Origin: Mobula hypostoma
Lineage: Eukaryota
Length of the DNA: 64,000 nucleotides
Reading direction: 5' to 3'
NCBI RefSeq assembly: GCF_963921235.1
Contig: NC_086108.1
Location: 63,738,001 to 63,802,000, forward strand
Shown here: in pieces, positions 11,501-20,500 of the stretch
Layout: each line of letters starts with the position of its first letter
Numbering within the stretch: position 1 is the first letter of the stretch
Translations under genes and position numbers: made by a program
Notes under the pieces: generated by a model
What the model saw: only the letters and a program-made list of their open reading frames with translations
Told to the model about the DNA's origin: nothing
The model's database searches: none

Positions 11501-14500
11501 TGTAATTGCATAAAATTATTATGCTCCATAATGTTTCATTTGTTTCAAATAAGTCATAGTTCAACAATTCTAATTACATAGAAACATAGACATAGAAACA
11601 TAGAAAATAGGTGCAGGAGTAGACCATTTGGTCCTTCGAGCCTGCACCGCCATTTATTATGATCATGGCTGATCATCCAACTCAGAACCCCGCCCCAGCC
11701 TTCCCTCCATACCCCCTGATCCCCGTAGCCACAAGGGCCGTATCTAACTCCCTCTTAAATATAGCCAATGAACTGGCCTCAACTGTTTCCTGCGGCAGAG
11801 AATTCCACAGATTCACCACTCGCTGTGTGAAGAAGTTTTTCCTAATCTCGGTCCTAAAAGGCTTCCCCTTTATCCTCAAACTGTGACCCCTCGTTCTGGA
11901 CTTCCCCAACATCGGGAACAATCTTCCTGCATCTAGCCTGTCCAATCCCTTTAGGATTTTATACGTTTCAATCAGATCCCCTCTCAATCTTCTAAATTCC
12001 AACGAGTACAAGCCCAGTTCATCCAGTCTTTCTTCATATGAAAGTCCTGCCATCCCAGGAATCAATCTGGTGAACCTTCTTTGTACTCCCTCTATGGCAA
12101 GGATGTCTTTCCTCAGATTAGGGGACCAAAACTGCACACAATACTCCAGGTGTGGTCTCACCAAGGCCTTGTACAACTGCAGTAGTACCTCCCTGCTCCT
12201 GTACTCGAATCCTCTCGCTATAAATGCCAGCATATCACTCGCCTTTTTCACCGCCTGCTGTACCTGCATGCCCACTTTCAATGACTGGTGTATAATGACA
12301 CCCAGGTCTCGATGCACCTACCCTTTTCCTAATCGGCCACCATTCAGATAATAATCTGTTTTCCTATTTTTGCCACCAAAGTGGATAACTTCACATTTAT
12401 CCACATTAAATTGCATCTGCCATGAATTTGCCCACTCACCCAACCTATCCAAGTCACCCTGCATCCTCTTAGCATCCTCCTCACAGCTAACACTGCCGCC
12501 CAGCTTCGTGTCATCCGCAAACTTGGAGATGCTGCATTTAATTCCCTCATCCAAGTCATTAATATATATTGTAAACAACTGGGGTCCCAGCACTAAGCCT
12601 TGCGGTACCCCACTAGTCACTGCCTGCCATTCTGAAAAGGTCCCGTTTATTCCCACTCTTTGCTTCCTGTCTGCCAACCAATTCTCTATCCACATCAATA
12701 CCTTACCCCCAATACCGTGTGCTTTAAGTTTGCACACTAATCTCCTGTGTGGGACCTTGTCAAAAGCCTTTTGAAAATCCAAATATACCACATCCACTGG
12801 TTCTCCCCTATCCACTCTACTAGTAACATCCTCAAAAAATTCTATGAGATTCGTCAGACATGATTTTCCTTTCACAAATCCATGCTGACTTTGTCCGATG
12901 ATTTCACTGCTTTCCAAATGTGCTGTTATCACATCTTTGATAACTGACTCCAGCAGTTTCCCCACCACCGACATTAGGCTAACCGGTCTATAATCCCCTG
13001 GTTTCTCTCTCCCTCCTTTTTTAAAAAGTGGGGTTACATTAGCCACCCTCCAATCCTCAGGAACTAGTCCAGAATCTAACGATTTTTGAAAAATTATCAC
13101 TAATGCATCCACTATTTCTTGGGCTACTTCCTTAAGCACTATGGGATGCAGACCATCTGGCCCTGGGGATTTATCTGCCTTTAATCCCTTCAATTTACCC
13201 AACACCACTTCCCTACTAACATGTATTTCACTCAGTTCCTCCATCTCACTGGACCCTCTGTCCCTTACTACTTCTGGAAGATTATTTATGTCCTCCTTAG
13301 TGAAGACAGAACCAAAGTAATTATTCAATTGGTCTGCCATGTCCTTGCTCCCCATAATCAATTCACCTGTTTCTGTCTGCAAAGGACCTACATTTGTCTT
13401 TACCAGTCTTTTCCTTTTTACATATCTATAAAAGCTTTTACAGTCCGTTTTTATGTTCCCTGCCAGTTTTCTCTCATAATCTTTTTTCCCCTTCCTAATT
13501 AAGCCCTTTGTCCTCCTCTGCTGAACTCTGAATTTCTCCCAGTCCTCAGGTGAGCCACTTTCTCTGGCTAACTTGTATGCTTCTTCTTTGGAATTGATAC
13601 TATCCCTAATTTCCCTTGTCAGCCACGGGTGCACTACCTTCCTTGATTTATTCTTTTGCCAAACTGGGATGAAATTACAAAAGACCTCTGCAGGATTTAG
13701 ATTTAGGCTATCACAAAAACAAAAACTGTTGAGCTCTTCGGATTATAGCTCAGGAAACAAAAAAAAAACTAACCCAATATTCAAACCTGCTTTCTGTTCT
13801 GAGTTAGTGGGTTTCAACCGAGGCACAAGAATAAAGCACAGCAATTATTCGCAGGATCCTGAAGCTAAGGAAGAAAAGCAATTGGTCAAGATGCTATCCT
13901 GAGCATAATCCAGTGGTCCTTTCTAGAAACTGTGACTGCTTGTATATTAGATGTGAATAGAAACATAGAAACATAGAAAATCTACAGCACAATACAGGCC
14001 CTTCGGCCCACAAAGCTGTGCCGAACATGTCCTTGCCTTAGAAATTACCTAGAGTTACCTATAGCCCTCTATTTTTCTAAGCTCCATGTACCTATCCAAA
14101 AGTCTCTTAAAAGACCCCCTCCAGCAGCATTTCCAGCAGCACATTCCATGCATTCACCACTCTCTGCATAACAAAAAACTTACCCTGACATCTCCTCTGT
14201 ACCTACTTCCAAGGACCTTAAAACTATGCCCTCTCGTGCTAGCCATTTCAGCCCTGAGAAAAAGTCTCTGACTATCCACACGATCAATGCCTCTCATCAT
14301 CTTGTACACCTCCATCAGGTCACCTTTCATCCTCCATCGCTCCAAGGAGAAAAGGCCAAATTCACTCAACCTATTCTCATAAGGCATGCTCCCCAATCCA
14401 GGCAACATCCTTGTAAATCTCCTCTGCACCCGTTCTATGGTTTCCACATCCTTCCTGTAGTAAGGTGACCAGAACTGAACACAGTACTCCAAGTGGGGTC

Positions 14501-17500
14501 TGACCAGGGTCCTCAGAGCTGCAACATTACCTCTCGGCTCTTAAACTCCATCCCATGATTGATGAAGGCCAATGCACTGTATGCCTTCTCACCACAGAGT
14601 TAACCTGTGCAGCAGATTTGAGTGTCCTATGGACTTGGACCCCAAGATCCCTCTGATGCTCCACATTGCCAAGAGTTTTGCCATTAATACTATATTCTGC
14701 CATCATGTTTGACCTACCAAAATGAACCACCTCACACTTAGAGTCTGAGAGTCTGAGTGGGAGTGCCGAGAAAGAGATTTTTGAAATTTTCGTTATTTTT
14801 TTCCTCCAACGGCTTTCTGAGAGGCGGGACTGCGCAGGCGTGTGACGTCGGGCAGTGCAGCGCGGCAGATTTAAAAGGAACAAAGCCTCATAGAGCGGGC
14901 AGCGTAGTTTGCGGGCTGCGGAGTGAGCCGGGAGCAGAGTGAAGACTTAAGGGCTTCGGCTCACCGGGCTTAGGCGGAAGCGGGCGAGGCGAGGAAGGTT
15001 TGACATTCATTTTTCTGTTGCTATTTGAGGAGAGGGGCATTATGACTGTGAGGGCAGTTTGCTGTTCTCGGTGTCGGATGTGGGAGGCCCTGGAGTCTCC
15101 AAGCCTCCCAGACGTCTACATCTGCGCCAAGTGCATCGAGATGCAGCTCCTAAGGGACCGCGTTACGGAACTGGAGCTGCAGCTCGATGACCTTCGTCTG
15201 GTCAGGGAGAGCGAGGAGGTGATAGAGAGGAGTGGAAGGCAGGTGGTCACGCCGGGGCCAAGGGAGGCAGACAAGTGGGTCATGGTTAGGAGGGGGAAGG
15301 GGAAAAGTCAGGTGATGGGGAGTACCCTGGTGGCTGTGCCCCTTAACAACAGGTACTCCTGTTTGAGTACTGTTGGGGGAGACAGCTTACCCGGTGGAAG
15401 CGACAGTGGCCGTGCCTCCGGCACAGAGTCTGGCCCTGTAGCTCAGAAGGGTAGGGCAAGGAAGAGGAGGGCAGTTGTGATAGGGGACTCGATAGTAAGG
15501 GGGTCAGATAGGCGATTCTGTGGACGCAGTCCAGAGACCCGGATGGTAGTTTGCCTCCCTGGTGCCAGGGTCCGGGATATTTCTGATCGTGTCCAAGATA
15601 TCCTGAAGTGGGAGGGTGAGGAGCCAGAGGTCGTGGTACATATAGGTACCAATGACATAGGTAGGAAAAGGGATGAGGTCCTGAAAGGAGAATATAGGGA
15701 GCTAGGAAGGGAGTTGAGAAAAAGGACCGCAAAGGTAGTAATCTCGGGATTACTGCCTGTGCCACGCGACAGTGAGAGTAGGAATGCGATGAGGTGGAGG
15801 ATAAATGCGTGGCTGAGGGATTGGAGCAGGGGGCAGGGATTCAAGTTTTTGGATCATTGGGACCTCTTCTGGGGCAGGCGTGACCTGTACAAAAAGGACG
15901 GGTTACACTTGAATCCTAGGGGGACCAATATCCTGGCAGGGAGATTAGCGGGGGCTACTGAGGTGACTTTAAACTAGAATGGTTGGGGGGTGGGAATCAA
16001 ATTAAAGAGGCTAGGCGTGAGGAAGTTAGTTCACAACAGAGGGATGGGAACCAGTGCAGAGAGACAGAGGGGTGTAAAGTGAGGGTAGAAGCAAAAAGTA
16101 CAAAGGAGAAAAGTAAAAGTGGCAGGCCGACAAATCCAGGGCAAGCATTAAAAAGGACCACTTTTCAACATAATTGTATAAGGGCTAAGAGAGTTGTAAA
16201 AGACCGCCTGAAGGCTTTATGTGTCAATGCAAGGAGCATTCGTAATAAGGTGGATGAATTGAAAGTGCAGATTGTTATTAATGATTATGATATAGTTGGG
16301 ATCACAGAGACATGGCTCCAGGGTGACCAGGGATGGGAGCTCAACGTTCAGGGATATTCAATATTCAGGAGGGATAGACATGAAGGAAGGGGAGGTGGGG
16401 TGGCGTTGCTGGTTAAAGAAGAGATTAACGCAATAGAAAGGAAGGACATAAGCCGGGAAGATGTGGAATCGATATGGGTAGAGCTGCGTAACACTAAGGG
16501 GCAGAAGACGCTGGTGGGAGTTGTGTACAGGCCACCTAACAGTAGTAGTGAGGTCGGAGATGGTATTAAACAGGAAATTAGAAATGTGTGCAATAAAGGA
16601 ACAGCAGTTATAATGGGTGACTTCAATCTACATGTAGACTGGGTGAACCAAATTGGTAAAGGTGCTGAGGAAGAGGATTTCTTGGAATGTATGCGGGATG
16701 GTTTTTTGAACCAACATGTCGAGGAACCAACTAGAGAGCAGGCTATTCTGGACTGGGTTTTGAGCAATGAGGAAGGGTTAATTAGCGATCTTGTCGTGAG
16801 AGGCCCCTTGGGTAAGAGTGACCATAATATGGTGGAATTCTTCATTAAGATGGAGAGTGACATAGTTAATTCAGAAACAAAGGTTCTGAACTTAAAGAGG
16901 GGTAACTTTGAAGGTATGAAACGTGAATTAGCTAAGATAGACTGGCAAATGACACTTAAAGGATTGACGGTGGATATGCAATGGCAAGCATTTAAAGGTT
17001 GCATGGATGAACTACAACAATTGTTCATCCCAGTTTGGCAAAAGAATAAATCAAGGAAGGTAGTGCACCCGTGGCTGACAAGAGAAATTAGGGATAGTAT
17101 CAATTCCAAAGAAGAAGCATACAAATTAGCCAGAGAAAGTGGCTCACCTGAGGACTGGGAGAAATTCAGAGTTCAGCAGAGGAGGACAAAGGGCTTAATT
17201 AGGAAGGGGAAAAAAGATTATGAGAGAAAACTGGCGGGGAACATAAAAACGGACTGTAAAAGCTTTTATAGATATGTAAAAAGGAAAAGACTGGTAAAGA
17301 CAAATGTAGGTCCTCTGCAGACAGAAACAGGTGAATTGATTATGGGGAGCAAGGACATGGCAGACCAATTGAATAATTACTTTGGTTCTGTCTTCACTAA
17401 GGAGGACATAAATAATCTTCCAGAAATAGTAAGGGACAGAGGGTCCAGTGAGATGGAGGAACTGAGTGAAATACATGTTAGTAGGAAAGTGGTGTTAGGT

Positions 17501-20500
17501 AAATTGAAGGGATTGAAGGCAGATAAATCCCCAGGGCCAGATGGTCTGCATCCCAGAGTGCTTAAGGAAGTAGCCCAAGAAATAATGGATGCATTAGTGA
17601 TAATTTTTCAAAACTCGTTAGATTCTGGACTAGTTCCTGAGGATTGGAGGGTGGCTAATGTAACCCCACTTTTTAAAAAAGGAGGGAGAGAGAAACCGGG
17701 GAATTATAGACCGGTTAGCCTAACGTCGGTGGTGGGGAAACTGCTGGAGTCAGTTATCAAGGATGTGATAACAGCACATTTGGAAAGCGGTGAAATGATC
17801 AGACAAAGTCAGCATGGATTTGTGAAAGGAAAATCATGTCTGACGAATCTCATAGAATTTTTTGAGCATGCAACTAGTAGAGTGGATGGGGAGAACCAGT
17901 GGATGTGGTATATTTGGATTTTCAAAAGGCTATTATACACCATTATACACCAGTCATTGAAAGTGGGCATGCAGCTACAGCAGGCGGTGAAAAAGGCGAA
18001 TGGTATGCTGGCATTTATAGCGAGAGGATTCGAGTACAGGAGCAGGGAGGTACTACTGCAGTTGTACAAGGCCTTGGTGAGACCACACCTGGAGTATTGT
18101 GTGCAGTTTTGGTCCCCTAATCTGAGGAAAGACATCCTTGCCATAGAGGGAGTACAAAGAAGGTTCACCAGATTGATTCCTGGGATGGCAGGACTTTCAT
18201 ATGAAGAAAGACTGGATGAACTGGGCTTGTACTCGTTGGAATTTAGAAGATTGAGGGGGGATCTGATTGAAACGTATAAAATCCTAAAGGGATTGGACAG
18301 GCTAGATGCAGGAAGATTGTTCCCGATGTTGGGGAAGTCCAGAACGAGGGGTCACAGTTTGAGGATAGAGGGGAAGCCTTTTAGGACCGAGATTAGGAAA
18401 AACTTCTTCACACAGAGAGTGGTGAATCTGTGGAATTCTCTGCCACAGGAAACTGTTGAGGCCAGTTCATTGGCTATGCTTAAGAGGGAGTTAGATATGG
18501 CCCTTGTGGCTACAGGGGTCAGGGGGTATGGAGGGAAGGCTGGGGCGGGGTTCTGAGTTGGATGATCAGCCATGATCATAATAAATGGCGGTGCAGGCTC
18601 AAAGGGCCGAATGGCCTACTCCTGCACCTATTTTCTATGTTTTCTATGTTTATCTGGGTTGACCTCCATCTGCCACTTCTCAGCCGAGTTTTGCATCATA
18701 TAATTGTCGCGTTGTAACTTCTGACAGCCCTCCACACTATCCACGACACCCCCAACCTTTGTCTCATCAGCAAATTTACTAACCCATCCCTCCACTTCCT
18801 CATCCAGGTCATTTATAAAAAGCATGAAGAGAAGGGGTCCCAGAACAGATCCCTGAGGCACACCACTGGTCACTGATCTCCATGTAGAATATGACCTATC
18901 TACAACCACTCTTTGTCTTCTGTGGGCGAGCCAATTTTGGATCCACAGAGCAATGTCCCCTTGGATCCCATGCCTCCTTACTCTCTCAATAAGCCTTGCA
19001 CGGGGTACCTTATCAAATGCCTTGCTAAAATCCATATACACTACATCTACTGCTCTTCCTTCATCAATGTGTTTAGTCACATCCTCAGAAAAATCAATCA
19101 AACTCGTAAGGCACGACCTGCCTTTGACAAAGCCATGCTGACTATCCTAATCATATTATGCCTCTCCAAATGTTCATAAATCCTGCCTCTCAGGATCTTC
19201 TCCATCAACTTACCAACCACTGAAGTAAGGCCCACTGGCCTATAATTTCCTGGGCTGTCCCTACTCCCTTTCTTGAATGAGGGAACAACATCCACAACCC
19301 TCCAATCGTCGGGAACCTCTCCCGTCCCCATTGATGATGCAAAGATCCTCACCAGAGCCTCAGCAATCTCCTCCCTCGCCTCCCACTGCAGCCTGGGGTA
19401 CATCCAGTCCATTCTCAGACTTATCCAACTTGATGCTTTCCAAAAGCTCCAGCACATTCTCTTCCTTAATATCTACATGCTCAAGCTCTTCAATCCATTG
19501 TAAGTCACCTCTACAATATAATTAGATCCAGTTGTCACTCACACAATGGTTACACGGTGAACCAACTTTGAATCTCTAAGTAATCACATGAAAAAGCCTT
19601 ATTAATAAGAGGACAAATATTAGAAAATATTTAACCTTTGCAATTTTCATCAAATAAAGCAAAAGTACAGCACATTTCCAGTCCATATTGCAAGTTGTTT
19701 TGCTTTTTCATTAGCATAACCATAGCTGTTATTTTATTCAACTAAACTGCTGCTTCCCTCTTGCACTTCCATCCAAGATCAGCTAACAACATTGAAAATC
19801 TTTATAATAAAGTTATATACTGATGCTGGCTTTTCTAACTGAGGCATTCTTAGTGTAGAACATACTACGAGTTCTACGAGTCTGTGGTGGCCAGTGCTAT
19901 CATGTTTGCTGTTGTGTGCTGGGGCAGCAGGCAGAGGGTAGCAGACACCAACAGAATCAACAAACTCATTCGTAAGGCCAGTGATGTTGTGGGGATGGAA
20001 CTGGACTCTCTGACGGTGGTGTCTGAAAAGAGGATGCTGTCTAAGTTGCATGCCATCTTGGTCAATGTCTTCCATCCACTACATAATGTACTGGGTGTGC
20101 ACAGGAGTACATTCAGCCAGAGACTCTTTCCACCGAGATGCAGCACTGAGCATCATAGGAAGTCATTCCTGCCTGTGGCCATCAAACTTTACAACTCCTC
20201 CCTTGGAGGATTAGACACCCTGTGCCAATAGGCTGGTCCTGGACCTATTTCATAATTTCCTGGCATAATTTACATATTACTATTTAACTATTTATGGTTC
20301 TATTACTATTTATTATTTATGGTGCAACTGTAACAAAAACCAATTTCCCCCAGGATCAGTAAAGTATGACAATGACTATGACTATGACTTGTAAGGAAAA
20401 AGTTAAATGTGATCCCTCCTTGGTATATGCTGAAATAAAATGCAAGTCTATAAGACAAAATGGTGTTATACTGGAGTGGGATTGTTTTGAGAAAGTACAA

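Follow-up and report, generated by a model that had tools for sequence, protein, structure and literature searches.

A candidate programmed −1 ribosomal frameshift site at the ORF1/ORF2 junction of CR1 retrotransposons

The question raised by this locus is how the second open reading frame of a CR1 retrotransposon is translated when its first in-frame ATG lies inside the endonuclease domain. The window, a stretch of 64,000 nucleotides of the Mobula hypostoma genome (contig NC_086108.1, positions 63,738,001 to 63,802,000), contains such a copy, and a sequence-only reading of this stretch had suggested that a programmed −1 ribosomal frameshift joins its ORF1 to an AUG-less ORF2.

The CR1 copy in the window and its ORF1/ORF2 junction

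The features of the copy are the following:
14741..18650, + strand: CR1-clade LINE copy with both ends present; aligns from 14741 to the full copies L177 and L178 at 98%
15042..15977, + strand: ORF1, 311 aa, SGNH/GDSL esterase type (PF13472, E 3e-17), C-terminus T-L-N-stop
15959..15961, + strand: TGA shutting the −1 frame, two codons 5′ of the heptamer
15962..18556, + strand: ORF2 frame of 864 codons with APE endonuclease and partial RT; the first ATG is at 16613
15968..15974, + strand: putative slippery heptamer T_TTA_AAC, in X_XXY_YYZ phase with ORF1
15974..16201, + strand: variable −1-frame linker from slip site to endonuclease, without stop or AUG
15975..15977, + strand: ORF1 stop adjoining the heptamer; TAG in 15/20 and TAA in 5/20 lineages
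15985..15990, + strand: G run separated from the heptamer by a constant 10 nt, G in 18-20/20 lineages at five positions; candidate linear 3′ stimulator
17934..17941, + strand: site of an in-frame loss, net 459 nt compared to L177 and L178; RT core gone (QGSVLGP and FADD motifs)

ORF1 ends with ACT TTA AAC TAG, which places T_TTA_AAC in register right before the stop. ORF2 uses the −1 frame, which is blocked by the TGA at 15959 and open from 15962, and overlaps ORF1 by 16 nt. Its first in-frame ATG is located 3′ of the VNARS, ITETW and YRPP motifs, inside the endonuclease. All of these points had been described from the letters alone and were reproduced. The junction shows three of the features by which −1 sites are recognized, namely an in-phase X_XXY_YYZ heptamer, an overlapping −1 ORF open from the heptamer, and conservation of the heptamer beyond protein constraint (see below). 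The heptamer alone is not rare, as TTTAAAC occurs 19 times within the window on both strands; among these 19, a stop and a G run follow only at 15968-15974. Conservation, and not the occurrence of the heptamer, is what exceeds chance. A TTG at 15983 lies in the −1 frame. One base past the ORF1 stop, an out-of-frame AUG at 15979 opens an ORF of 8 codons (15979-16005), which was seen in the lineage of the window copy (lineage A).

Due to the 459-nt deletion the window copy is unable to encode a working RT and represents a dead copy with an intact junction; the RT core is complete in L177. The break contains a short duplicated filler, and ORF2 is still open across it. The family is young (98-99% identity to other copies), and the copy was inserted into an older minus-strand CR1 fragment. 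Three more CR1 ORF2 fragments on the minus strand (12318-13742, 14154-14740 and 18628-19472) correspond to one member of the window family and to the older copy split by the insertion at 14741..18650.

With an SGNH esterase ORF1 (PF13472), an ORF2 comprising APE endonuclease and RT, and a 3′ end with a short tandem repeat, the element resembles canonical vertebrate CR1 (type IVB, CR1 subgroup 7) as characterized in the searched text of PMC4120745 and PMC13343379. The provisional label esterase-type vertebrate CR1 draws on homology of ORF1, on the tandem repeat at the 3′ end and on sequence motifs. The nearest named ORF1 relatives are ray and skate proteins. One CR1 ORF1 (P0019), with 61% identity to the window ORF1, is filed as an SGNH hydrolase of Pseudomonas aeruginosa and probably represents vertebrate contamination of an assembly.

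Conservation of the heptamer and the ORF1 stop

A DNA search of the Mobula hypostoma genome yielded 768 candidates, of which 40 were scored (98-100% identity) and 30 fetched. The heptamer followed by TAG was detected in 29 of these 30 young copies. Due to their identity of 98-100%, this shows only that the layout belongs to the source element of the family. A diverged set was composed of same-genome loci matched by diverged ORF1 proteins and of 43 metagenome contigs; several of the latter resemble avian CR1. From 168 loci, 20 without an ORF1 C-terminus and 7 with the junction beyond the contig end were removed, and 141 were retained; 8 duplicate loci of lineage B were taken out. The junction was defined independently of the motif as the first ORF1-frame stop past the catalytic D-x-x-H. 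Since automatic clustering (29 clusters) both over-split and over-merged, 24 lineages were delimited manually on the basis of clusters and linker lengths. Four of them (L105, L119, L126 and L128, the last having no heptamer) were left out as decayed at the junction, leaving 20. Their representatives share 17-82% identity (median 36%) across the last 60 ORF1 residues. Because of shared ancestry the 20 lineages are not independent, and the counts overstate their independence: 7 are from this genome, and 13 are single metagenome-contig copies drawn from few clades.

In all 20 representatives the terminal ORF1 leucine is encoded by TTA, and in 19 of them the terminal asparagine by AAC. The base 5′ of TTA AAC is T in 19/20, under eight different amino acids; the exception is L096 with G_TTA_AAC. 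As a control, the invariant leucine of the DGLHL motif, located 18-24 codons upstream, uses all six codons (CTG 11, CTA 4, CTT 2, and TTG, CTC and TTA once each), and the codons for D, G and H of this motif are mixed as well. Since TTA is fixed while the control leucine varies, the constraint acts on the RNA. At the DNA level, diverged lineages share the heptamer, the adjoining stop, five G's at a 10-nt spacer and the −1 register, and the putative slip signal is a property of the CR1 family and not of the window copy alone. In the old lineage B, heptamer and stop are intact in only 15 of 29 copies.

The ORF1 proteins themselves point in the same direction. Among 120 homologs listed among 162 matches, 77 have a complete C-terminus, judged by a catalytic motif lying 20-36 residues before it. 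L-N is the terminal dipeptide in 73 of the 77, with rays, sharks, coelacanth, frogs, turtles, squamates and a bird among the named sources. In a wider set, 204 of 309 proteins qualified, with 133 ending in L-N, 28 in G-N and 4 in K-N. The residue before L-N allows an NNT codon in 131/133. An NNG codon is possible before G-N in 28/28 (Gln in 25), a codon ending in T being impossible in 26/28, and the residue before K-N is Ser in 4/4. Distant esterase ORF1s ending in Q-G-N or S-K-N include P0162, P0102, P0183 and P0275-P0293 as well as P0189 and P0253. These protein ends would fit a swap among U_UUA_AAC, G_GGA_AAC and A_AAA_AAC, the G-N case being read from protein ends only; in the searched text of PMC5009743 these are three of the four heptamers named as most shifty. 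The G-N set was grown by a search built from the G-N set itself and is mostly one clade. DNA for G-N-ending ORF1s was found neither in the viral contigs nor in the plasmids searched, the genome contigs gave just one weak bacterial esterase, and the best matches in the Mobula hypostoma genome were only 32-39% identical. The viral contigs searched likewise contained no ORF1 relatives.

The register of ORF2 and the routes to its translation

The endonuclease could be located in 89 copies that carry heptamer and stop; 74 of them have it in the −1 frame, 7 in frame 0 and 8 in +1. The −1 frame is modal in 16/16 lineages, at linker lengths of 86-299 nt. Of the 74 copies with a −1 endonuclease, 66 have a linker open in the −1 frame, compared to 4 for frame 0 and none for +1; shuffled linkers stay open in −1 with a probability of 0.0005-0.30 per lineage. 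In L177, ORF2 comprises 1,013 codons open from the slip site, the first Met being codon 213. The suggestion of an AUG-less ORF2 stood for the window lineage (25/26 copies) and four other lineages but not for CR1 generally: no AUG precedes the endonuclease in 5/16 lineages, the chance expectation being 4.8-7.6, and in 11/16 an in-frame AUG is present at codons 1 to 87.

We consider it probable (about 0.78) that the CR1 ORF1/ORF2 junction is a programmed −1 frameshift site, with ORF2 being made as a C-terminal extension of ORF1. The reading first proposed from the window is supported on comparative grounds, by the conserved heptamer, stop and −1 register; the loss of conservation that it had named as refuting was not seen. 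Most ribosomes would terminate at TAG, yielding the 311-aa esterase ORF1p. A minority, while tRNA-Leu and tRNA-Asn occupy UUA AAC, would slip one base back by tandem tRNA slippage, in competition with termination, and would continue with CUA as the next codon. Shifted ribosomes would then proceed via linker, endonuclease and RT, resulting in a minor fusion product of ~1,320 aa in an undeleted copy (311 + 1,013; L177).

Alternatively, ribosomes might terminate and restart near the ORF1 stop, at an AUG or any other codon, thereby producing a free ORF2p, with heptamer and G run serving as a reinitiation signal. The main result against a pure frameshift reading is a cluster of in-frame AUGs located 1-2 codons past the ORF1 stop in 5/16 lineages (F, L125, L091, L095 and L101), two of them as TAATG overlaps, a larger number than chance would suggest. 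There are also precedents: SART1 uses a UAAUG stop-start (searched text of PMC3708506), and L1 ORF2 is believed to initiate in an AUG-independent manner (searched text of PMC5009743). An AUG of the SART1 type, overlapping or beside the ORF1 stop, is nevertheless absent from the window lineage, which has no NTG before the TTG at 15983 and whose nearest AUG (15979) is out of frame with 8 codons. An NTG at the second codon past the stop occurs in only 7/20 lineages. The TTG at 15983, which the sequence-only reading had named as a near-cognate start that would speak against slippage, is not conserved, the matching codon and its neighbour varying between lineages. Moreover, reinitiation predicts neither an in-phase X_XXY_YYZ, nor the apparent swap of heptamers, nor the loss of the AUG in a successful lineage. 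We regard it as an unlikely explanation of the junction, and in the lineages with a stop-proximal AUG it may coexist with frameshifting, both routes being used. By loci, in-frame AUGs at most 2 codons from the ORF1 stop were seen in L150, L153, L125, L091, L095 and L101, with TAATG in two lineages.

The motif might also be kept for a cause outside translation, such as a packaging site, an internal promoter or a protein need for a C-terminal L-N, with ORF2 being translated by a separate route. Unpaired G runs are typical protein-binding sites, and L-N is invariant in alignment A1. A protein need, however, would not fix synonymous codons, and a site of fixed sequence would neither change to ends in G-N or K-N along with the fitting residue before them nor keep ORF2 in the −1 register, which makes this explanation quite improbable. 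Splicing, with ORF2 joined to an AUG further 5′ and either the stop's own AG or a (C/A)AG immediately 5′ of the G run as acceptor, is the least probable and hardly credible: +9/+10 is AG in 14/20 lineages, but a pyrimidine tract is absent, the stop is TAA in 5/20, and the window lineage and L125 carry TTG at that place. Contigs of four runs showed no GT..AG joint at the junction among 15 of 19 joints, which was not weighed as evidence.

The G run and the relation to known frameshift systems

Given programmed frameshifting, the G run is a candidate for a stimulator. The G's at the five positions +10 to +14, counted from the first stop base, are kept in 18-20 of the 20 lineages, whereas the sequence varies from +15 onward. 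Representatives for these positions were the best ORF1 scorers; lineage E was represented by L149, which carries a 12-nt insert between heptamer and stop and was replaced by L147 for the codon counts. The Gly codon within the run is GGG in 16/16, compared to 91/290 for downstream Gly codons. A G tract 3′ of the heptamer had been noted before, and it is indeed present; its conserved part starts at 15985, with a spacer of 10 nt, and not at the GG at 15981.

Most −1 sites carry a 3′ stem-loop, a pseudoknot or a G-quadruplex. The local folds suggested for this junction were not borne out. The 101 nt past the heptamer folded worse than shuffles (z +1.0) with no conserved structure, and the G run at 15985..15990 was unpaired in the centroid fold. 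No conserved hairpin 5-9 nt 3′ of the heptamer was detected among the 20 representatives, whose z values ranged from −2.05 to +1.58 with a single one under −2. For pseudoknots the comparison covered C-rich pairing partners: a C run of at least 4 within 150 nt was present in only 2/20. The pattern of a two-tier G-quadruplex occurred in 6/20 and that of a three-tier one in 0/20. A local fold is probably not what stimulates the shift. Base pairing of the G tract over a long range, with the 3′ part of the element, was also considered in 10 near-full elements and was not supported: the best duplex beat all 6 shuffles in 6/10 elements by only 0.3-2.8 kcal/mol, with the shuffles scanned more coarsely, and partner sites differed by lineage, only the related lineages A and F sharing one ~450-470 nt before the ORF2 end.

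According to the searched text of PMC5009743, a minority of stimulators act 11-15 nt 3′ of the shift site, some of them linear and tied to trans-acting factors; for Semliki Forest virus rRNA pairing is given there as a possible stimulator, and in an umbravirus frameshifting is affected by a nearby stop. The fixed G5 would fit this class of far-spaced linear stimulators, a step that we hold less firmly than frameshifting itself and at slightly below even odds. There is a likeness to the trans-stimulated sites of arterivirus nsp2 and of cardioviruses (nsp1-beta with PCBP; spacers of 11-14 nt; searched text of PMC5009743), which share a short linear motif, a long fixed spacer and no conserved fold. 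They differ in that the CR1 motif is G5, with an as yet hypothetical binding factor, and in that the shift is −1 into the polymerase frame. The arterivirus nsp2 motif is C-rich.

The heptamer itself is that of the nidovirus ORF1a/1b junction (U_UUA_AAC of IBV), where it likewise closes the first ORF in phase, with the polymerase in −1, and the G_UU(A) variant of equine arteritis virus has its counterpart in the G_TTA_AAC of the CR1 relative L096; in contrast to the CR1 junction, where none is conserved, nidovirus sites use a pseudoknot few bases downstream (nidovirus sites in the searched text of PMC5009743). Among non-LTR elements with an APE-type endonuclease, TRE5-A and TRE3-A of Dictyostelium, which belong to a different clade and host, are said in the searched text of PMC5911963 to require a −1 frameshift for ORF2. 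For elements of Paramecium a +1 shift, reinitiation or readthrough has been suggested (searched text of PMC5405496). Human L1, silkworm SART1 and zebrafish ZfL2-1 also have a bicistronic RNA with ORF2 translation dependent on ORF1 translation. ZfL2-1 reportedly reads through the ORF1 stop, as Kajikawa is said to have described in 2012. Unlike the proposal for CR1, L1 and SART1 reinitiate (searched text of PMC5009743 and PMC3708506).

The main text of PMC4120745 and PMC13343379 does not contain the term frameshift, and a route for CR1 ORF2 translation was not found described there; CR1 is in turn absent from the searched text of PMC5009743. No proposal of CR1 frameshifting was found in the full-text literature searched, which included PMC3894237, PMC3905857, PMC4255032, PMC5006619 and PMC2817409; an earlier remark may exist in the original CR1 descriptions or in Repbase. 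The junction is a deeply conserved candidate cassette and would represent a known mechanism with an atypical stimulator, in elements for which no description of it was found.

A broader reading, which we put forward tentatively and hold somewhat short of even odds, is that esterase-type CR1 elements across jawed vertebrates, together with distant relatives using other heptamers, make RT only as a gag-pol-like ORF1-ORF2 fusion, via a structure-free cassette of heptamer, stop and linear G5 at 10 nt that would be driven by a bound host protein, ORF1p or rRNA pairing. In most vertebrates, elements of the CR1 group are the predominant retrotransposons (searched text of PMC13343379). If frameshifting holds, RT would be synthesized joined to a membrane-binding esterase in a fixed proportion, which is the situation of retroviral gag-pol and not of L1; CR1 ORF2 would need a new annotated start, and the design of CR1 retrotransposition assays would change. 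If the linear G5 does stimulate, it would constitute a new natural class of eukaryotic frameshift signal.

A comparison of lineage A, to which the window copy belongs, with its sister lineage F suggests a chimera. Their ORF1s are 71-72% identical, compared to 90-93% for the endonuclease. The junction of lineage A is 54 nt longer, owing to an in-frame insert in the linker (15974..16201), the −1 register is kept, the TAATG of lineage F is absent, and the family has been amplified recently. We infer that in lineage A an ORF1 with its own slip cassette may have been swapped in register onto an ORF2 of lineage F. ORF1 shuffling in CR1 and L2 has been proposed before (searched text of PMC4120745). 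Alignment of 15975-16045 of the window with L188 further showed what appears to be a remnant of the G-rich junction of lineage F near 16035-16050.
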